Positions 1,245-21,861 of a stretch of DNA of 21,861 nucleotides are shown here, piece by piece. A model generated the notes under the pieces. The model made no database searches. It saw only the letters and a program-made list of their open reading frames with translations, and had not been told where the DNA came from. The translations under genes and the position numbers were made by a program. Numbering within the stretch: the first letter of the stretch is position 1; every line of letters starts with the position of its first letter. Source of the stretch: a virus (lineage: Duplodnaviria; Heunggongvirae; Uroviricota; Caudoviricetes); IMG/VR virus record IMGVR_UViG_2579778633_000005, positions 1 through 21,861 of that record; one strand, 5' to 3'.

Positions 1245-2399
1245 ATGCTCACCGTTAAGCAGATTGAAGCAGCAAAGCCGAAAGAAAAACCATACCGCCT
1301 ACTCGATGGTAATGGCCTGTACCTTTATGTCCCTGTGTCAGGGAAAAAGGTATGGCAGCTTCGCTACAAGATTGACGGTAAGGAGAAAATCCTGACCGTC
1401 GGAAAATATCCGCTTATGACTTTGCAGGAGGCAAGGGATAAAGCATGGACTGCGAGGAAAGACATCTCGGTTGGCATCGATCCGGTAAAAGCAAAAAAGG
1501 CTTCGTCTAACAACAATTCCTTTAGCGCCATTTACAAGGAATGGTACGAGCACAAGAAGCAAGTCTGGTCAGTAGGCTATGCAACTGAACTTGCCAAAAT
1601 GTTTGATGACGACATTTTACCCATCATCGGCGGTCTTGAGATTCAGGATATTGAGCCGATGCAACTGCTGGAAGTAATCCGCAGATTTGAAGATCGCGGT
1701 GCAATGGAGCGAGCCAACAAAGCCCGCAGAAGATGCGGCGAGGTTTTCCGTTACGCTATTGTCACCGGCAGGGCTAAATATAACCCGGCACCTGACCTTG
1801 CTGGCGCCATGAAGGGGTACCGCAAGAAGAACTTCCCGTTTCTTCCTGCAGACCAGATCCCGGCATTCAATAAAGCACTGGCAACATTTTCAGGAAGTAT
1901 CGTATCGCTCATTGCCACCAAGGTTTTACGCTACACTGCCCTAAGAACGAAAGAGCTTCGTTCCATGCTATGGAAGAACGTCGATTTTGAAAACAGAATT
2001 ATCACCATCGACGCCAATGTGATGAAGGGACGCAAAATTCATGTGGTCCCGATGTCAGACCAGGTGTTTGAACTTCTCACTACGCTAAGCTCAATCACCA
2101 AACCAGTATCAGAGTTTGTTTTTGCCGGGCGCAACGATAAGAAGAAGTCAATCTGCGAGAACGCGGTACTGCTTGTGATCAAACAAATCGGCTATGAGGG
2201 TCTGGAAAGCGGTCACGGATTCAGGCATGAATTCAGCACGATTATGAACGAGCACGAATGGCCTGCCGACGCCATTGAAGTGCAACTGGCACATGCCAAC
2301 GGCGGTTCTGTGCGCGGGATTTACAACCATGCGCAGTATCTCGATAAACGCAGGGAAATGATGCAATGGTGGGCGGACTGGCTTGATGAAAAGGTGTGA
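1245..2399 (+). CDS. intS: Tyrosine recombinase, phage integrase of the IntS (KplE1/Sf6/HK620) type
   Basis: The ORF track begins at a GTG at 1209; I prefer the ATG at 1245 (MLTVKQIEAAKPKEKPYRLLDGNGLYLYV), which matches the N-terminus of K-12 IntS as I recall it. C-terminal catalytic region carries HGFRHEF and the RGIYNHAQY tyrosine motif. Directly follows the tRNA. Confidence 0.85.
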   Translation: MLTVKQIEAAKPKEKPYRLLDGNGLYLYVPVSGKKVWQLRYKIDGKEKILTVGKYPLMTLQEARDKAWTARKDISVGIDPVKAKKASSNNNSFSAIYKEWYEHKKQVWSVGYATELAKMFDDDILPIIGGLEIQDIEPMQLLEVIRRFEDRGAMERANKARRRCGEVFRYAIVTGRAKYNPAPDLAGAMKGYRKKNFPFLPADQIPAFNKALATFSGSIVSLIATKVLRYTALRTKELRSMLWKNVDFENRIITIDANVMKGRKIHVVPMSDQVFELLTTLSSITKPVSEFVFAGRNDKKKSICENAVLLVIKQIGYEGLESGHGFRHEFSTIMNEHEWPADAIEVQLAHANGGSVRGIYNHAQYLDKRREMMQWWADWLDEKV

Positions 2400-2402
2400 G
2401 TT

Positions 2403-2442
2403 GTTGAGCGCAAAATTTGAATATTTTTGATTTGCACTCAAC
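2403..2442. repeat. Imperfect 12-bp inverted repeat (GTTGAGCGCAAA / TTTGCACTCAAC, 16-bp spacer) just after the int stop
   Basis: 11 of 12 positions pair; no T-run on either strand, so not a canonical intrinsic terminator. Possible RNA hairpin or protein-binding site. Confidence 0.3.
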
Positions 2443-2561
2443 CACAACAATTGAATATCCAGAAAATTATTAATGATTATTCATTTTTTTGTCAAGTTAT
2501 GTAATAAATCCTATAGCATACGACGATACTTGGATTGATTAACGCCGCCAAGCTGCATGGT

Positions 2562-2613
2562 ATGCATGAGATGCCATTTAAAGCATCATGTTGCGCAATC
2601 ACATCTCATGCAT
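2562..2613. repeat. Perfect 12-bp inverted repeat (ATGCATGAGATG / CATCTCATGCAT) with 28-bp spacer containing palindrome TTGCGCAA, 30 bp beyond the tailspike stop
   Basis: Read directly from the sequence; lies in the convergent int/tailspike intergenic region; no T-run. Confidence 0.3.
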
Positions 2614-2642
2614 ATTAATAATATTCATACAACGCAGAACAG

Positions 2643-4730
2643 CTATCCTATAACAACCCCATCAGTTAAACTTGTTGGCGGAGACCCAAATTTCCTAACC
2701 AACTGTCCTGATGAGTTCCTGAATAGATAGAATTTGCTACCAAATTCCATGCATGGAATACCTGTTCCTGTGGTGGTAGCCAATCCGAGATTTGTTGCAA
2801 TGAATGCCTTTCCATCGAAATTAATAATATTGCTTACGTTATTTACCCCGTGGTAGTTTGAAATCGAGCTAACCCAGTCTAAAGCTGTAGTTTTTGGATT
2901 AGTAATGTTCAATGCATTTGCAGCGGCCGTCAGCTTGTCTATGCGCAGGTTATCGATAGTTACTTTTCCGTAGTTATCAATCGCCAAAGCAGTGGCAGGG
3001 TTACGTATATCGATGTTACGTCCTACAAACTCGCTAATGTTCTTTATTCTCGGAGCGGTTTTAATTCCGGTCAAGGTGCAAGTATAGTTCTCGACTTTGA
3101 CGACCCCAAAGGTATCTCCTCCGTTAGTCGTGTTTATACTGAGAGCATTCTGCACGTTTTCACTTGTTACATTTAAAATTTTAGCATCAATTACGCCAGA
3201 GTTCTCAATATTAACGTCAGCGTTAGCACCGTTTATGTACACACCATCGAGTGTAGCTTTACGAGTAAGTGGAGAGTTGCTCGGATACATGCTAATGATA
3301 ACCCCCATCGTATTATGACGAACTGATGGGTTATCTTCATCCTCTACCGTATTCTGGTGATAGATTCTTGTACCTTGCCCTATGTACACGTCATAGCTTC
3401 CAGATAGACGCATACCCCACTTGCCTTTCTTACTCCCGATATTGTTGCAATATGCACCGAGAACAACCCCAGACGATATCTGGAATACAGGGCTGCCGTC
3501 AGAATTGTCTTCAGAGGTCATCAATATTGGCTCTCTCCAGCGGGATACCTGATATGACCCGCCGATTACCTTGAAGTTAGCGGTACTGTAGAAGGCCATG
3601 CCGTTACGGTCAGTATCATAAGTGCGACAACGCGTCACCTGCACATCAGTACAGAACATAAACATTATCCCAGGTTGACCGCCACGAGAGCCATAAGCAT
3701 TAACAACCGAGCAGTCAGTTAATTTAATGCGAGTGGCCTGGTGGAACCAGAAACCATTAAATGTTGACTTATCTGATGCTGTGTCCCACGTCACATTAGA
3801 CTTATTACCATCAATAATAAGCCCATTTACCGTGATATCATAATGCTCTGGCGTTTCAGCGTCATAACTATAGCCTTTACGGTTTGTAATACCTGTAGAT
3901 ATGCCAAGGTAGCTTCCGGGCTTAAGCTTAAGTGTGCACCCGTAGGCGTCAATGGTCGTTCCTGTTTTAACAATTAAAGGTGTCCCGTCCCAGTAAATTG
4001 TTCGTGCGGGGAAATGAACAAGAGGCGATCCTGAATTTAGAGCGGCATTAATTGCAGCAGTATGGTCTCCAGCATAATCCATCTCAGGGGTAATAAATTG
4101 TTCAACGCTGACCGGTACGCCATATCCACGCTGTGCATTGCCAACACATTTCCAGTTCGAATCTGGTGACGATCCAGCTAAGACATTTATTGGATAAGGA
4201 AACGTCCCATTGTACTGATAGTGGTAACCATCACTATATAAAGCCACATCTTTACTGTCATTTAGCGTCCCGCCAGAAACGAAACTAGCTATTCTTTTAT
4301 AATACGATTCAAGATAGTCACTATATACATTACCGTTGTATGAACTACCAACAAGCTTATCTCCTCCATTGGTGGTTATTTCCTGTCGTAATTGATCAGG
4401 GTCATACTTCAGTACATTAGGAAAATAGAACTGCTGAGCACCGTAAGCATCATATACAGCCATAGAATGGCCTTGCACAGTTACGAACTTAGCAATCTGT
4501 CCGTTATATACAGGGTAACCAGCAGCGTTAAGGATGATTGGTTGCGAAACAGGAACGTGAGAACCGTCTTCGTTCTCCACATAAACCTGAACCTGGTTTT
4601 CAGGATTTACCGGGTCAGTGTCAATTTTACCGATATAAATTTTGCCATTAGCTACAGCTTTAAAAGAACGCGCCATAGTGAAGAGTTGCGATGGCATGCT
4701 TACCACAACATTGGCTGTAATGTCTGTCAT
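2643..4730 (-). CDS. Tailspike protein (695 aa): P22 gp9-type N-terminal domain fused to a divergent receptor-binding/depolymerase domain
   Basis: First ~110 aa ([113 protein letters not shown]) are near-identical to the P22 tailspike head-binding domain as I recall it. The remainder is Gly/Asn/Thr-rich and unrelated to the P22 receptor domain. Confidence 0.85.
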
Positions 4731-4798
4731 TTAATTTGCTCCAGATACAAGGAATCGCCGCGGCGTGGCCGCAGTGATGCATTATTAATCAAACAAAG

Positions 4799-4813
4799 AG
4801 ACCACGGTGGTCT
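4799..4813. promoter_or_regulatory. Mnt operator-like palindrome AGACCAC-G-GTGGTCT
   Basis: Perfect 7-bp inverted repeat around a central G, sharing the CCACGGTGG core of the P22 Mnt operator as I recall it. Located between divergent mnt and tailspike starts, next to a candidate mnt promoter (-10 GATAAT at 4834-4839). Confidence 0.5.
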
Positions 4814-4876
4814 TATTGAGGATGCAACCAGCAGATAATAAGATGCCGATCCACTCACAAAAGCGAGGCATCAAGA

Positions 4877-5128
4877 ATGGGAAGAGATGACCCGCAATTT
4901 AATCTGCGGCTACCTTACGAATTAAAGGAAAAACTAAAACAGCGAGCCAAATCCAATGGCCGCTCTCTTAATTCAGAATTAGTTCAGATAGTGACTGATG
5001 CTGTATCAAAGCCATCCAAAATTTCAGGCTATCGAGACGATGCGGAACGCATCGCTGATGAGCAGTCTGAACTTGTTAAGAAGATGGTGTTTGATACGCT
5101 GAAGGATTTGTACAAAAAACCCACCTGA
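4877..5128 (+). CDS. mnt: Mnt repressor (ribbon-helix-helix, Arc/MetJ family, 83 aa)
   Basis: Sequence MGRDDPQFNLRLPYELKEKLKQRAKSNGRSLNSELVQIVTDAVSKPSKISGYRDDAERIADEQSELVKKMVFDTLKDLYKKPT closely matches P22 Mnt as I recall it. RBS GAGG 9 nt upstream. Confidence 0.85.
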   Translation: MGRDDPQFNLRLPYELKEKLKQRAKSNGRSLNSELVQIVTDAVSKPSKISGYRDDAERIADEQSELVKKMVFDTLKDLYKKPT

Positions 5129-5137
5129 TGGTGGGTT
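5115..5137. terminator. Bidirectional hairpin between convergent mnt and lipoprotein genes; strong intrinsic terminator for the minus-strand transcript
   Basis: Stem AACCCACC / GGTGGGTT (8 bp) with loop TGAT. On the minus strand it is followed by TTTTTTGT; on the plus strand by CCATTT. The mnt stop codon lies in the loop. Confidence 0.55.
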
Positions 5138-5144
5138 CCATTTA

Positions 5145-5564
5145 CTAGTCTTGCTTTGTGGACGGTATAAGGGATGCATTTGCCTCTTTAGGCTTCAAGG
5201 TATACATACCGCCATTAAATGGATCTACAGCAAGCCAACCAATTAACCCACCAAACACAAGGTTTCCACCAATATACCAACCATTAGCATTGGCTTTGAT
5301 TGGCAGGGTAACTGGTTCGTACCCATCCTTCTCCATAGTGATCTGGTAGCTCTTTTTGCCAAAATAACTACCATCTGACTTGGCAAGAGTTACTCCTTGC
5401 GGGGTCTTACCTTGCGCAACAATCACGCCTGATTCGTCTTTTACCTTAAAGCTCGCGCCGGAAGGATTGCTGTTCACTTGCACAAGCTGTGTTTCGTCAC
5501 CAACAATAGTTGCGCACCCAGATAACAATATAGCGCCAGCAACGACGCCGATAATCCTCTTCAT
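5145..5564 (-). CDS. Predicted outer-membrane lipoprotein (139 aa), function unknown (moron)
   Basis: Signal peptide MKRIIGVVAGAILLSGC with lipobox LSGC and Ala at +2. Segment SNPSGASF...GKTP...KDGYEP resembles a PEGA-type beta domain (tentative). Sits where P22 carries sieA. Confidence 0.6.
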   Translation of the reverse strand: MKRIIGVVAGAILLSGCATIVGDETQLVQVNSNPSGASFKVKDESGVIVAQGKTPQGVTLAKSDGSYFGKKSYQITMEKDGYEPVTLPIKANANGWYIGGNLVFGGLIGWLAVDPFNGGMYTLKPKEANASLIPSTKQD

Positions 5565-5698
5565 ATTACTTTCCGTTTTGTTAGAATCAGAAAGATCTTA
5601 ATAATAAAAAGTATTTTCGTGAAGATATTGTCGATTGAGTTAATAACTCATTTACACCCAACAGTGCCATGATGGCAAAGATAAGGAGAGTTAATCAT

Positions 5699-6184
5699 AT
5701 GAAAAAATCACTGTTAATTATCCCGCTTCTGCTGGCAGGGTGTGCAAAGGTTAGCGACTATCAGGAAAATTGCGAACAACGCTATCCAAAGCTTAGCGAT
5801 ATGGCTAATTGCCTTGATGCTAGCGTGAAGAACGACTCACGCATGGCATCAGCACCAACACCTAAGTTATATGTCCTTGCTGCGAAGATGCTCGGGCAAG
5901 GTGTCGATGATGGCAAGATAAGTGACGCGCAGGCAAGACTTGAGCTTCAGAATCTTTATGTTCAACTACAAAGCCAAGAACAAGCCCAACAAATAGCGCA
6001 AAGCCAAGCATTCCAGCAGGCTTTATTGAATTATCAGGCTGTAAACACAATGCAAGCGATCGAGCAAAAAGCGAGACAGCCTGTTATAACTCAACCCTAT
6101 CCAACACGAGTTGACACTTACACAAACTGCAATTCAGGGTTTGGAAATACAGTCACATGCAACAGTAGCAGTAACATCAGATAA
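5699..6184 (+). CDS. Predicted outer-membrane lipoprotein (161 aa) with Gln-rich coiled-coil-like segment, function unknown (moron)
   Basis: Start chosen at ATG 5699, with RBS AAGGAG at 5683-5688, rather than the track's 5669. Signal peptide MKKSLLIIPLLLAGC with lipobox LAGC and Ala at +2. Divergently transcribed from the neighbouring lipoprotein gene. Confidence 0.55.
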   Translation: MKKSLLIIPLLLAGCAKVSDYQENCEQRYPKLSDMANCLDASVKNDSRMASAPTPKLYVLAAKMLGQGVDDGKISDAQARLELQNLYVQLQSQEQAQQIAQSQAFQQALLNYQAVNTMQAIEQKARQPVITQPYPTRVDTYTNCNSGFGNTVTCNSSSNIR

Positions 6185-12846: not shown

Positions 12847-12905
12847 TTATTCACCTATGCGTTTGGGATATCGCCATCAATCAGAGGGAGATCGCCTGGA
12901 TAATA

Positions 12906-13337
12906 TCAGTCAGATGTAAACACGTCATATTTATTACCCTGTCCTACAGGAAAATCTCCACGTCGTCGCATTGAAGGAACAACCAGAGTGTCGGTCATCA
13001 AGGCATCATATGAGCGTTGGGCGTTACTGAGAACTTGCGGAGTTGGTTCAAGGCTGTAATCAGATAGCATTCTCAGCAATAACTGATAGCCTACTGCGTG
13101 TTTGTATTTTCTTGGAAGACCTGACTCATCATCTGGTAATGGCTGATCATCTCCAGTTGCGAAAGCGTAACCAATGTCGCCGGGGTTAATCATCCACTCG
13201 GACATCATATCTTCCAGATCATTTACACCATCTTCAATTGATTGCGGCTCAACATCAGTCAGCGATGCATTAGAAGCAATAGCAAACTTACGAAGCGCAA
13301 AAAGGACGATCTCACCCTTTGTCAGTACTGTTGCCAT
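12906..13337 (-). CDS. Tail accessory / head completion protein, P22 gp4 family (143 aa)
   Basis: N-terminus [48 protein letters not shown] aligns with P22 gp4 as I recall it ([32 protein letters not shown]...). Confidence 0.75.
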   Translation of the reverse strand: [143 protein letters not shown]

Positions 13338-13497
13338 TGTCTGCCGCCTTACGACCTCGCTTACTGGTCGGTTTCAATTCATCAACTGAGGCAACAAAGC
13401 CCAACCTTTCGAAAAACTGGAAGTCTTTTTCTGCGATAACGGCCTGTACATGCCCGGATTCGTTATCTGCGGCAAGGAATACACTCATCCGATCCAT
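13312..13497 (-). CDS. Small hypothetical protein (61 aa) between the coat and gp4 genes
   Basis: ORF begins 8 nt after the post-coat terminator and overlaps the gp4 start by 26 nt. Called on position only; P22-like phages such as Sf6 carry a small gene between coat and the gp4 homologue. Confidence 0.35.
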   Translation of the reverse strand: MDRMSVFLAADNESGHVQAVIAEKDFQFFERLGFVASVDELKPTSKRGRKAADNGNSTDKG

Positions 13498-13504
13498 ATT
13501 GTTT

Positions 13505-13534
13505 CCTTAAAACATAAAAGGGGCGTAAGCCCCT
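13505..13534 (-). terminator. Intrinsic terminator-like hairpin after the coat remnant
   Basis: Stem AGGGGC / GCCCCT with loop GTAA at 13519-13534, followed on the minus strand by TTTATGTTTT; begins 5 nt after the coat ORF stop. Confidence 0.5.
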
Positions 13535-13539
13535 TGTTA

Positions 13540-14106
13540 TTACGGATTACCGAAGAACTGACCGCCCATGTGAGGGTTAAAGCACACATATGCAGGCAGT
13601 AAGTCGAAGCGCATTTTTTGCACGTTGGCATCGCCATCTGCGTATTTATGTACGCGGATGGAGAAACCTTCATATGTTGCAACAGCAGAATCAATACTGT
13701 GCAGTTTCGGCAGTGGGATAGAGCCAAGTCCACAGAAGAACTTGTTATAGAACAGGTTTGGCTTCATTGTCTGGCTAGCAGTGCCTACTACAGATACGTC
13801 ATCGCCTGCATCTACCTGACGACTTACAGAGTTGTACTGCGGGTTTGTAGTGTCATAAATCGGAACACCAGAAAGCGTAACCGTCACATCGCCACCGCTG
13901 TCTGAATCAGCATCAGCAGTAACCGTTGCAGTGAAGCTAATTGGTGTGGCTCCGTTATACAACGCCTGTTTGGTCTGCTGTTGCAGCCAGTAGGTATTGG
14001 TGAATTTGACCTGATCACCAGCTTTCAGAAAACCTGTAACGCTGGCTTTCGCTCCGGTCAATGTTACAGTGAACTGGTACGGGGATTCATTCGGGCCAGC
14101 GCCCAT
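13540..14106 (-). pseudogene. Probable 3' remnant of the major coat protein gene (188-codon ORF), N-terminal part deleted
   Basis: Occupies the coat position just before the gp4 block but is less than half the ~425 aa of P22-like coat proteins. Its 5' end overlaps the 3' end of the truncated terS reading frame. Identity as coat is inferred from position, not from recognised sequence. Confidence 0.45.
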
Positions 14107-14405
14107 TTGCGGGTATCAACGCGAAGTCTTGCCTTTGCCACCTCGGCGGCATCTGGAATCGCAGTGTCAGCAATTTCGAATATCTCTTCGAAAATAGAAT
14201 CAGCTCGTGCCTCAGTTGCCTTCGCGTACTTGTCGCGAAAATCCTCATGCTTTGCCAACCAGCGGAAAACAGTGGACTTATCCGGCATACCAGGACGCTT
14301 ACATACTTTCAGCAAACTTTCGCCAGAAGAAAGCAACGAGCAGATATCGTCAGCCACCTCCGGCATATAATCAGAGGGGCGACCAGCTTTTGGTTCAGTC
14401 GCCAT
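14064..14405 (-). pseudogene. 5' remnant of small terminase subunit gene (113-codon ORF; frame lost after ...ARMNPR)
   Basis: MATEPKAGRPSDYMPEVADDICSLLSSGESLLKVCKRPGMPDKSTVFRWLAKHEDFRDKY... matches my recollection of the Sf6-type small terminase (~140 aa). The ORF ends early and is followed directly by a coat-like 3' segment; no terL, portal or scaffold genes are present. Confidence 0.5.
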
Positions 14406-14430
14406 ATTTATCTCACTTAATTGTCATTTC

Positions 14431-14608
14431 AGGTTGAGGACTCTTTCGCGCCTTCAATCAGTGACTGCTTCAGCAATTCGAGTGTGCCAATCGCCTCGCA
14501 TAAACTGATTTCACCATCGTAATCATGAATGACGCTTTCCAGCCGCTCGTATAGCTCTTGAGTAATTGGGAATTTCTTCTCCTTACCCAAATTGATTACG
14601 CGGCTCAC
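14431..14608 (-). CDS. Small hypothetical acidic protein (59 aa, GTG start)
   Basis: Hand-translated ORF (V/M)SRVINLGKEKKFPITQELYERLESVIHDYDGEISLCEAIGTLELLKQSLIEGAKESST, with GGAG 7 nt upstream of the GTG. Below the 60-aa cutoff of the supplied track. Immediately upstream of the terS remnant. Confidence 0.4.
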
Positions 14609-14609
14609 A

Positions 14610-14852
14610 TCATGCTCCGGTGGTGAACAGGTCTAACGCTTCCTTCGATTTACGCACCGCTTCAAATGTGCGGATCGTGATATCCGAATTAGCGCCACCT
14701 GACTGGAAGTGAATTTTGAATAGCTCAAGCTTCAGTTCGTCAGTGCCAATGAATTGAAATGCTTCTTCTGCGGCTGCGTTCTGGTTCATGACCAGTTTGT
14801 AAATCTCTAACTGGAATTTCTGTTCTTCAGTCATGGGAATAATCTCTGCCAT
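14610..14852 (-). CDS. Hypothetical protein (80 aa)
   Basis: ORF between the lysis cassette region and the terS remnant; no recognisable motif. Confidence 0.45.
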   Translation of the reverse strand: MAEIIPMTEEQKFQLEIYKLVMNQNAAAEEAFQFIGTDELKLELFKIHFQSGGANSDITIRTFEAVRKSKEALDLFTTGA

Positions 14853-16801: not shown

Positions 16802-17323
16802 TTAATAAATAACCCATGTCTTATAGTTAAGAATTCCTGCAATTGTTGCTTTTGATACGCCGTACATTCTCGCCATTTCACGCTGTGACATTGATTTGCA
16901 CGCACGTATTTCTTTCACTTGCTCAGTAGTGAGTTTTGCACAATAGTGACGCTCACCACTGATTGGGTTTAGCAATCCTGACTTGCTTGCATGGACCATA
17001 TTCTGGCAGCCAGTAACCCACTCAAGATTATCTACTCTGTTGTCAGACTTGATTCCATTTATGTGGTTTACCTGCGGAAGCGAGTTTGGATTATCAATGA
17101 ATGCAGCCGCCACTAACCTGTGAATGTAATGTTTTTTAAGTGCTCCTTTGTCGCGGAGATTTACATACAAGTAACCATCACTATGATTAACAGGCTTAAG
17201 CCATCTGCCCTTCTGTAACCTTCCACGAGCATCAACTCTCGAATGAGAATAAACGCGGCCATCAGTAGTTACGGAGTATTTACCTTCATATCCTGCGATA
17301 TCTTTCGCTGTTTCGCTTAGCAT
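16802..17323 (-). CDS. HNH homing endonuclease (NUMOD4 + HNH_3 + C-terminal HTH; 173 aa)
   Basis: NUMOD4-like GYEGKYSVTTDGRVYS; HNH_3-like HRLVAAAFIDNPNSLPQVNHINGIKSDNRVDNLEWVT; C-terminal HTH-like ...SQREMARMYGVSKATIAGILNYKTW. RBS AAGGAG upstream. Inserted between lambda-like pR'/tR' sequence and lambda-like sequence upstream of S. Confidence 0.75.
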   Translation of the reverse strand: MLSETAKDIAGYEGKYSVTTDGRVYSHSRVDARGRLQKGRWLKPVNHSDGYLYVNLRDKGALKKHYIHRLVAAAFIDNPNSLPQVNHINGIKSDNRVDNLEWVTGCQNMVHASKSGLLNPISGERHYCAKLTTEQVKEIRACKSMSQREMARMYGVSKATIAGILNYKTWVIY

Positions 17324-20261: not shown

Positions 20262-20462
20262 ATGCAACACGAACTACAGCCTGATTCCCTGGTTGATTTG
20301 AAATTCATCATGGCTGATACTGGCTTCGGTAAAACCTTCATATATGACCGGATTAAGTCCGGAGACCTGCCTAAAGCCAAAGTTATCCACGGGCGAGCAA
20401 GATGGTTATATCGTGACCATTGTGAATTCAAAAATAAGCTCTTAAGCCGCGCCAATGGGTAA
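20262..20462 (+). CDS. torI: Excisionase / recombination directionality factor TorI (66 aa, winged-helix)
   Basis: MQHELQPDSLVDLKFIMADTGFGKTFIYDRIKSGDLPKAKVIHGRARWLYRDHCEFKNKLLSRANG matches K-12 TorI as I recall it; located next to the attR core repeat, RBS GGAG 10 nt upstream. Confidence 0.85.
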   Translation: MQHELQPDSLVDLKFIMADTGFGKTFIYDRIKSGDLPKAKVIHGRARWLYRDHCEFKNKLLSRANG

Positions 20463-20991: not shown

Positions 20992-21861
20992 CTATATTGC
21001 TGAAGGTACAGGCGTTTCCATAACTATTTGCTCGCGTTTTTTACTCAAGAAGAAAATGCCAAATAGCAACATCAGGCAGACAATACCCGAAATTGCGAAG
21101 AAAACTGTCTGGTAGCCTGCGTGGTCAAAGAGTATCCCAGTCGGCGTTGAAAGCAGCACAATCCCAAGCGAACTGGCAATTTGAAAACCAATCAGAAAGA
21201 TCGTCGACGACAGGCGCTTATCAAAATTTGCCACGCTGTATTTGAAGACGGATATGACACAAAGTGGAACCTCAATAGCATGTAACAGCTTCACTAATGA
21301 AATAATCCAGGGGTTAACGAACAGCGCGCAGGAAAGGATACGCAACGCCATAATCACAACACCGATAAGTAATGCATTTTTTGGCCCTACCCGATTCACA
21401 AAGAAAGGAATAATCGCCATGCATAGCGCTTCGAGTACCACCTGGAATGAGTTGAGATAACCATACAGGCGCGTTCCTACATCGTGTGATTCGAATAAAC
21501 CTGCATAAAAGACAGGAAAAAGTTGTTGATCAAAAATGTTATAGAAAGACCACGTCCCCACAATAAATATGACGAAAACCCAGAAGTTTCGATCCTTGAA
21601 AACTGCGATAAAATCCTCTTTTTTTACCCCTCCCGCATCCGCCGCTACGCACTGGTGATCCTTATCTTTAAAACACATGTTGATCATCATAAATACAGCG
21701 CCAAATAGCGAGACCAACCAGAAGTTGATATGGGGACTGATACTAAAAAATATGCCGGCAAAGAACGCGCCAATAGCATAGCCAAAAGATCCCCAGGCGC
21801 GCGCTGTTCCATATTCGAAATGAAAATTTCGCGCCATTTTTTCGGTGAAGCTGTCAAGCAA
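20992..21861 (-). CDS. cscB: LacY-family oligosaccharide:H+ symporter, sucrose permease CscB-like; 3' portion only, 5' end beyond the window
   Basis: Hydrophobic multi-TM protein; ...LVKLLHAIEVPLCVISVFKYSVANFDKRLSSTIFLIGFQIA... aligns with the LacY C-terminal region and matches my recollection of CscB, whose csc locus maps near argW/dsd in sucrose-positive E. coli. ORF runs to the window edge; the first codon is not a real start. Confidence 0.6.
   Translation of the reverse strand: MLDSFTEKMARNFHFEYGTARAWGSFGYAIGAFFAGIFFSISPHINFWLVSLFGAVFMMINMCFKDKDHQCVAADAGGVKKEDFIAVFKDRNFWVFVIFIVGTWSFYNIFDQQLFPVFYAGLFESHDVGTRLYGYLNSFQVVLEALCMAIIPFFVNRVGPKNALLIGVVIMALRILSCALFVNPWIISLVKLLHAIEVPLCVISVFKYSVANFDKRLSSTIFLIGFQIASSLGIVLLSTPTGILFDHAGYQTVFFAISGIVCLMLLFGIFFLSKKREQIVMETPVPSAI

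Follow-up and report, generated by a model that had tools for sequence, protein, structure and literature searches.

Positions 4731-5128 of the window (the whole 21,861-nt stretch of DNA that was analysed) probably hold the mnt-only form of the P22-like 'ant moron', with Mnt regulating only its own promoter. This reading builds on the identity of the gene, the conservation and co-variation of its operator, the geometry of its promoter, the absence of arc and ant and the purifying selection acting on mnt, all of which were established in the analysis. By analogy with P22, an Mnt tetramer would bind GACCAC-N-GTGGTC, centred about 45 bp upstream of the predicted transcription start of mnt, and would sit 2 bp from the -35 element of Pmnt (TTGAGG-17-TAAGAT), so that its regulation would be confined to this promoter. 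Pant, the Arc operator, arc, sar and ant appear to be gone and no tailspike promoter is recognisable; late-operon transcripts probably reach the tailspike gene by read-through, joined in the prophage by leaky transcription from the moron gene at 5145-5564. Both routes would cross the terminator at 5112-5145 and then run antisense through mnt. We infer the binding of Mnt at this site, the direction of its autoregulation and the route of tailspike transcription.

Gene content of the region and its known relatives

The tailspike gene (695 aa, 2643-4730, minus strand) encodes a P22-type head-binding domain at its N-terminus (Pfam Head_binding, E=1.2e-66) and is followed by a 146-bp gap (4731-4876, from the list of open reading frames) and a divergent 83-aa open reading frame (4877-5128, plus strand). 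The latter had been described as an intact P22-type mnt gene, and domain searches bear this out: its product combines an N-terminal ribbon-helix-helix domain (Pfam Arc PF03869, E=2.8e-22) with the C-terminal tetramerisation domain (Pfam Repressor_Mnt PF11423, E=2.2e-18, residues 53-80), and matches the P22 Mnt structures 1mnt (E=2.8e-34, residues 3-77) and 1qey (E=3.1e-12). It is 76% identical to P22 Mnt and 100% identical to the Mnt of phage Gally. On the other side of mnt lies a 139-aa moron gene homologous to epsilon34 gene 15 (5145-5564, minus strand), which reads toward mnt and the tailspike gene and whose Gally homologue is strongly expressed in the prophage according to published RNA-seq data. 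Between the two genes, a bidirectional intrinsic terminator is predicted at 5112-5145, where positions 5118-5125 pair with 5130-5137 and the mnt stop codon falls within the loop. It is stronger in the late-operon direction: the minus-strand fold, trailed by UUUUUUGU, has an energy of -18.0 kcal/mol, that of the plus strand -16.6 kcal/mol. In epsilon34, the equivalent position carries an annotated terminator.

The preliminary description also held that arc and ant are missing and that the operator therefore faces the tailspike gene, and this is what we find. Using P22 Arc, Ant and SieA as tblastn queries, no match to arc, ant or sieA was obtained in the window except mnt itself: mnt is the sole match of Arc, and Ant gives no match below E=3. 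The divergent neighbour of mnt is the tailspike gene, and the 5' end of ant, which sar overlaps, is missing from the window. At gathering thresholds, the Rfam scan of the window returned one argW-type tRNA (1009-1080) and nothing else.

The arrangement is not a local loss peculiar to this DNA, nor a fresh rewiring of tailspike control. It is a common and already known variant of the P22-like ant moron, described by Villafane 2008 and Zaworski 2021, in which mnt is the sole immI gene and lies between the ejection-protein genes, together with their morons, and the tailspike gene, opposite to the late operon; mnt occupies exactly this position in the window. The same mnt-operator-tailspike junction recurs across a clade of viable phages as well as prophages, including phage 720R6 (97.4% identical), phage Gally (96.6%), ST160, SE1 and related Salmonella phages (82.7%) and at least 37 complete E. 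coli genomes. Gally, a prophage of E. coli LF82 whose Mnt is GALLYPH_15, has the 96.6% DNA identity over 4603-5300, the same flanking morons and the same tailspike N-terminus; it differs from the window in being a complete inducible phage instead of a deleted remnant and in having T instead of G at the operator centre. Phages L, ST64T and ST104, as well as SE1 and ST160, likewise combine mnt, an operator (AAGACCACGGTGGTCTTATTG) and a tailspike gene 57 nt away, and share the N-terminal domain of Mnt, but in the window the operator is separated from the tailspike leader by 11 additional nucleotides. Phage L Mnt also stands apart in having a C-terminal domain with no relationship to the one found in P22, Gally and the window.

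Compared with the immI region of P22 (mnt - Omnt/Oarc - Pmnt/Pant - arc - sar - ant), the window has retained both Mnt domains, a palindromic operator with a CCAC-N-GTGG core, the placement of the cassette, flanked by gene 16 and its morons on one side and by the tailspike gene on the other and facing the late operon, and a conserved tailspike leader. In contrast, it has no Arc operator, Pant, arc or ant and probably no sar, its operator half-site is GTGGTC instead of GTGGACC, and what follows past the operator is the tailspike ATG after 68 nt instead of arc.

Several related loci show other arrangements. Sf101 and VSe13 carry a third Mnt class with the recognition strand AQFHLR, again as mnt-only beside the tailspike gene, and an imperfect palindrome (approximately ATACC-N5-GGTAC) occupies the same position before TATTG or GATTG. 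CUS-3 (2980-3509 of locus L010) and four IMG/VR loci have tandem mnt-like genes beside ant, without arc; the His6 Mnt of the CUS-3 type is the second of these genes, so that its upstream region is not an operator gap. Finally, at 3132-3555 of locus L007 (E. coli 30134_6#3) and in about ten IMG/VR loci the P22-type tailspike gene has been replaced by a different one, the old leader and its first four codons (MTDI) being left beside the operator, with about 280 extra bp before the new tailspike gene.

The window itself is part of an E. coli chromosome, at the yfdC / tRNA-Arg / intS site, and its prophage is a defective remnant. Relative to the intact LR-29-1 prophage, about 5.2 kb between gp4 and the lysis genes is gone (region 12856-14612), which removes the large terminase, the portal, the scaffold and ~250 N-terminal residues of the coat protein; at the deletion joint, the open reading frame of a C-terminal coat fragment (13540-14106) overlaps that of an N-terminal small-terminase fragment (14064-14405). 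Homology with P22-like prophages breaks off within the nin region, at about 19.2 kb (19221), and the window thus has no immC (c2/cro/replication) region. Beyond this point lie a small AlpA-like gene (20262-20462) and a LacY-family permease gene (20992-21861), perhaps cscB, a gene of the sucrose regulon that is located close to argW. An HNH/NUMOD4 homing-endonuclease-like gene (16802-17323) separates the Q antiterminator gene from the holin gene, in a stretch with no alignment to the LR-29-1 relative. Another perfect 15-bp palindrome, TGAGTTAATAACTCA, is found at 5636-5650, in the divergent gap between the moron genes at 5145-5564 (minus strand) and 5669-6184 (plus strand); it could be an operator, or a chance occurrence given the AT-rich stretch.

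The palindrome at 4799-4813 and the specificity class of Mnt

The 146-bp gap contains, as previously noted, a perfect palindrome, AGACCACGGTGGTCT, at 4799-4813, with the core GACCAC-N-GTGGTC at 4800-4812 centred on 4806 and 68 nt between it and the tailspike ATG. It had been called Mnt-operator-like, and in our view it is very probably a genuine one. The window has two palindromes of this kind (7-bp arms around a 1-bp gap) against ~1.3 expected; this frequency is unremarkable, and the case for function must therefore come from position and from the relatives. Three observations carry the assignment: the spacing to Pmnt is that of P22, the arms are conserved, and their sequence co-varies with residue 6 of Mnt.

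Regarding position, the P22 record annotates the Mnt operator as AGGTCCAC-N-GTGGACCT and Pmnt as TTGAGA-17-TATCAT. The predicted Pmnt of the window (4816-4844, plus strand) consists of a -35 element TTGAGG at 4816-4821, a 17-nt spacer and a -10 element TAAGAT at 4839-4844. It has 8/12 consensus matches in a hexamer scan and remains under the threshold of the promoter tool, but it is the positional homologue of the annotated P22 Pmnt and is conserved among 44 distinct upstream regions. Comparison of the two immI regions places the operator centre 10 nt before the first base of the Pmnt -35 element in P22 and in the window alike. Regarding conservation, the arms are retained in 720R6, Gally, ST160, L and the E. 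coli prophages, with a centre base of T, T, G, G, A or C depending on the relative, so that all four bases occur there. Among the 44 distinct upstream regions, however, the whole stretch from the operator to mnt is highly conserved, which makes the conservation of the arms alone unexceptional.

The co-variation was assessed on 80 IMG/VR loci gathered by similarity of the Mnt protein alone and not by the operator, which avoids circularity. Across these loci the arms track Mnt residue 6. All 64 loci with a Gln6 Mnt (MGRDDPQFNLR) have (A/C/T)GACCAC-N-GTGGTC at a constant distance from the ATG, six of them as single-base variants, and all 12 loci with a His6 Mnt (MARDDPHFNFR) adjoining arc have GGTCCAC-N-GTGGACC. 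Even distant Mnt proteins that resemble the window Mnt only in RDDPQFNLR (contigs L013, L066 and L077) accompany the same operator. For P22 Mnt, the optimal half-site has been measured as GTGGACC, with position 7 nearly free (PMC2726951); relative to this optimum, the half-site of the Gln6 class changes consistently only at position 5 (A to T), position 7 being variable as well.

The recognition strand of the window Mnt, RDDPQFNLR, differs from that of P22 at residues 6 (Gln instead of His) and 9 (Leu instead of Phe). The P22 specificity, His6 with the half-site GTGGACC, is thus not that of the window, where Gln6 goes with GTGGTC(T). On the strength of this co-variation, the window Mnt would represent a natural Gln6 specificity class of the Mnt family, and the palindrome at 4799-4813 its putative cognate operator. 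P22 Arc shares the ribbon-helix-helix fold, and its residues 8-13 are the PQFNLR of the window Mnt; Gln9, Asn11 and Arg13 of Arc contact bases (PMC12645479). Arc differs in having no tetramerisation coiled coil and in binding a 21-bp operator of another sequence, located between the -35 and -10 elements of Pant.

Further searches were made for the operator itself. Allowing up to three mismatches, no second Mnt site was found in the window, in the complete Gally genome, where the operator occurs once, or in the LR-29-1 prophage and its flanks. The 73 operator matches in IMG/VR without a nearby Mnt were screened by phmmer for Ant, Arc, Mnt and tailspike; 72 of these had none of the four and are chance or unrelated occurrences, and the remaining one lies on a contig that ends before mnt. 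In a collection of genome contigs with one genome per species, which evidently lacks such prophages, no relative of the locus was found, and the eight matches to the operator-plus-TATTG pattern were all chance matches in unrelated MAGs.

The window and its relatives also differ in a way that separates the two domains of Mnt. A mosaic joint lies inside mnt at about position 5030, dividing the DNA-binding from the tetramerisation domain: positions 5030-5300 have a 90-93% match in epsilon34 and in those E. coli prophages that carry a complete immI, while the N-terminal half and the operator are unmatched there. Together with phage L, which has the N-terminal domain and operator of the window but an unrelated C-terminus, this joint suggests that the operator and the DNA-binding domain move as one module.

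Selection on mnt and candidate targets in trans

Although both lineages lack arc and ant, the mnt genes of the window and of ST160 differ with a dS of 0.48 and a dN/dS of 0.10. Against phage L, which also has no arc or ant, the N-terminal domain shows 24 synonymous and 5 non-synonymous differences in 40 codons. The arc-less junction just past the operator, ATGC(A/G)T(T/C)ATTA, is common to the window and ST160/L types. The orphan mnt is thus under strong purifying selection. The suggestion that Mnt was kept for autoregulation only consequently stands in part: it fits the anatomy of the region, yet it gives no selective reason for keeping mnt and leaves this selection unexplained. Given the single copy of the operator in the complete Gally genome, any function beyond autoregulation would need to be exerted in trans or on passing transcription.

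Resident Mnt might act in trans on phages with a Gln6-type operator, whether incoming or co-resident, and repress their Pant-arc-ant, which would keep the resident prophage from being induced by their antirepressor. This role is compatible with autoregulation at Pmnt as the preferred reading, and we regard it as possible, if on balance unlikely. The purifying selection requires some function, and potential targets exist: complete mnt-operator-arc-ant cassettes with the operator AGACCACCGTGGTCT and a consensus TTGACA -35 element facing arc, the Ant of which is of the true P22 type (Pfam P22_AR_N and P22_AR_C). They are carried by ES18-like enterobacterial siphoviruses with ~82% identity to the Salmonella phages S107 and SPN3UB, and the metagenome that yielded one of them (L077) also yielded many Gally-type contigs. 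In P22 lysogens, Mnt acts in trans on superinfecting P22. Such cassettes are rare, however, with only three loci among 119 operator matches and none in 5,426 complete E. coli genomes, and any protection would fall short of constitutive, mnt expression in Gally being no higher than background in overnight LB. The three loci are ES18-like contigs (L066, positions 2158-3706, L077 and L013) with a complete mnt-arc-ant in which arc begins 10-18 nt past the operator; a resident orphan Mnt should, from the shared operator, repress the ant of phages of this kind. Related ant cassettes also occur in Erwinia phage Midgardsormr38 and in Salmonella phage SPN3UB but were discarded, since their operators and recognition strands are different.

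Transcription toward the tailspike gene and the persistence of mnt

The tailspike leader (4731-4785, minus strand) includes the Shine-Dalgarno sequence GGAG and, in an alignment of 22 distinct leaders, is invariant from about -27 to the ATG. It is also found in phages with a full arc-ant (P22, epsilon34) and in CUS-3, and therefore belongs to the tailspike module and not to mnt. A 7-bp RNA hairpin, CUGCGGC-CAC-GCCGCGG, is predicted within it at 4758-4774 (minus strand, tailspike-sense), whatever the moron type and including P22, epsilon34 and CUS-3. Across the 22 distinct leaders 95.5% of the 154 cells are paired, and two pairs change on both sides; 30 of the 154 cells are G.U pairs, which correspond to A.C mismatches on the opposite strand, so that pairing holds in the tailspike sense only. 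Support from covariation is modest, as 13 of 500 shuffles reach the observed score, and the deletion of the hairpin in seven related leaders indicates that it is not essential.

The hairpin accounts for the second palindrome, CGCCGCGGCG at 4756-4765, to which attention had been drawn earlier. The palindrome is present but is not a site in its own right: it consists of the 3' arm of the leader hairpin plus flanking bases, and arose by chance. One hairpin position runs through A-U, G.U and G-C among the leaders, and the window is the single G-C case, which creates the palindrome; close relatives have CGCCGCAGCA or CGCCGCAGCG there. Gapless palindromes with 5-bp arms number 17 in the window against ~21 expected. 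A protein site at this position was ruled out on this chance frequency and on the lack of conservation in close relatives.

The preliminary description had further proposed that Mnt may now control tailspike transcription. At the position equivalent to P22 Pant (4821-4849, minus strand), the window has TCGGCA-17-TGCATC, with 6/12 consensus matches and a -10 element without A2 and T6. The corresponding sequences are TTGACA-17-TATATT in P22, TTGACA-17-CATCAT in the ES18-like contig L066 and TCGGCA-17-TGTATC in ST160. From this comparison, we read the window equivalent of Pant as decayed and probably non-functional. None of the minus-strand hexamer pairs in the gap exceeds 7/12 matches to a sigma-70 promoter directed toward the tailspike gene, none has a -35 element and none is common to the window type and the ST160/L type; the promoter tool likewise returned nothing tailspike-directed in the gap. 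As far as can be judged from DNA, intact relatives thus have the same arrangement with no tailspike-directed promoter, an outcome that the preliminary description had set out as counting against its proposal. An unrecognised tailspike promoter, for instance a non-sigma-70 one, is possible.

Published expression data from Gally point in the same direction. While mnt is at background in overnight LB, it rises 40-fold in macrophages, and the tailspike gene rises with it by ~20-fold (PMC9928086). The three small flanking genes rise along with mnt, whereas late gene 12, just upstream, stays at background, and a delta-mnt::Kan lysogen is viable without a survival phenotype (PMC9928086). The co-induction of mnt and the tailspike gene is the opposite of what repression predicts. 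In the published RNA-seq data, tailspike RNA of the Gally prophage does not strictly track the upstream moron, which counts against the preferred reading of the region.

Mnt could in principle gate the tailspike gene either by repressing a promoter aimed at it or, through roadblock or head-on interference, by acting on transcription from the late operon or the upstream moron. The layout lends itself to such interference, since every upstream transcript entering the tailspike gene must pass the operator and Pmnt fires head-on against these transcripts, and Villafane et al. 2008 suggested that the ant moron and its repressors modulate tailspike read-through. Against it stand the promoter scan and the joint rise of both RNAs in Gally macrophage infections, and the weak terminator-like T-run after the palindrome is missing from ST160 and L. 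Roadblocks would be expected to have rather little effect on antiterminated late transcription. Overall, we find gating of the tailspike gene improbable, and control of this gene by Mnt is unsupported, given the decayed Pant, the lack of a sigma-70 promoter in the scan, the co-induction in Gally and the viability of the delta-mnt lysogen.

Still less probable is that mnt and its operator are a decaying relic, not yet eroded after the loss of arc and ant, an option raised for phage L by Zaworski et al. and in keeping with the lack of a phenotype of the delta-mnt Gally lysogen in the assay used and with the defective state of the window prophage itself. Among lineages with the arc-less junction, mnt has diverged to a dS of 0.48 or to saturation with dN/dS still at 0.10, none of the 64 Gln6 loci has a disrupted reading frame, and 58 of these loci retain a perfect operator. 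Moreover, three specificity classes (Gln6, the L variant with its other C-terminal domain, and that of Sf101/VSe13) occur as mnt-only beside the tailspike gene. The orphan mnt is therefore very unlikely to be a relic.

That the palindrome at 4799-4813 acts as an RNA hairpin, an attenuator or terminator in a tailspike-directed transcript, and not as a protein site is almost certainly wrong: the terminator scan does list it on the minus strand, followed by CTTTGTTTGA, with a fold of -9.3 kcal/mol, but the stem has just 6 bp with a loop of 3 nt, the T-rich tail is gone in ST160, L and the CGACCAC group (which rules out an intrinsic terminator), and an RNA stem would leave unexplained why the arms track Mnt residue 6 and keep a fixed distance to Pmnt.

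Autoregulation of mnt within an mnt-only ant moron thus seems the best account of the region, and the new points that go with it are modest. The pairing of His6 with A and Gln6 with T at half-site position 5 in natural Mnt variants adds to the classic studies of Mnt specificity. That the orphan mnt is under strong purifying selection speaks against the 'degrading remnant' option in the literature and demands some function. Whatever its role in intact phages, Mnt here resides in a prophage incapable of a full lytic cycle. More speculatively, and at odds that we would put as rather low, the orphan Mnt would be an anti-antirepressor that silences ES18-like Pant-arc-ant in trans and/or tunes tailspike transcription, its DNA-binding domain and operator forming an exchangeable module of which several classes circulate. 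The ES18-like cassettes, with arc and ant behind the same operator, offer a concrete and testable candidate for such cross-phage immunity as a trans target of Mnt.
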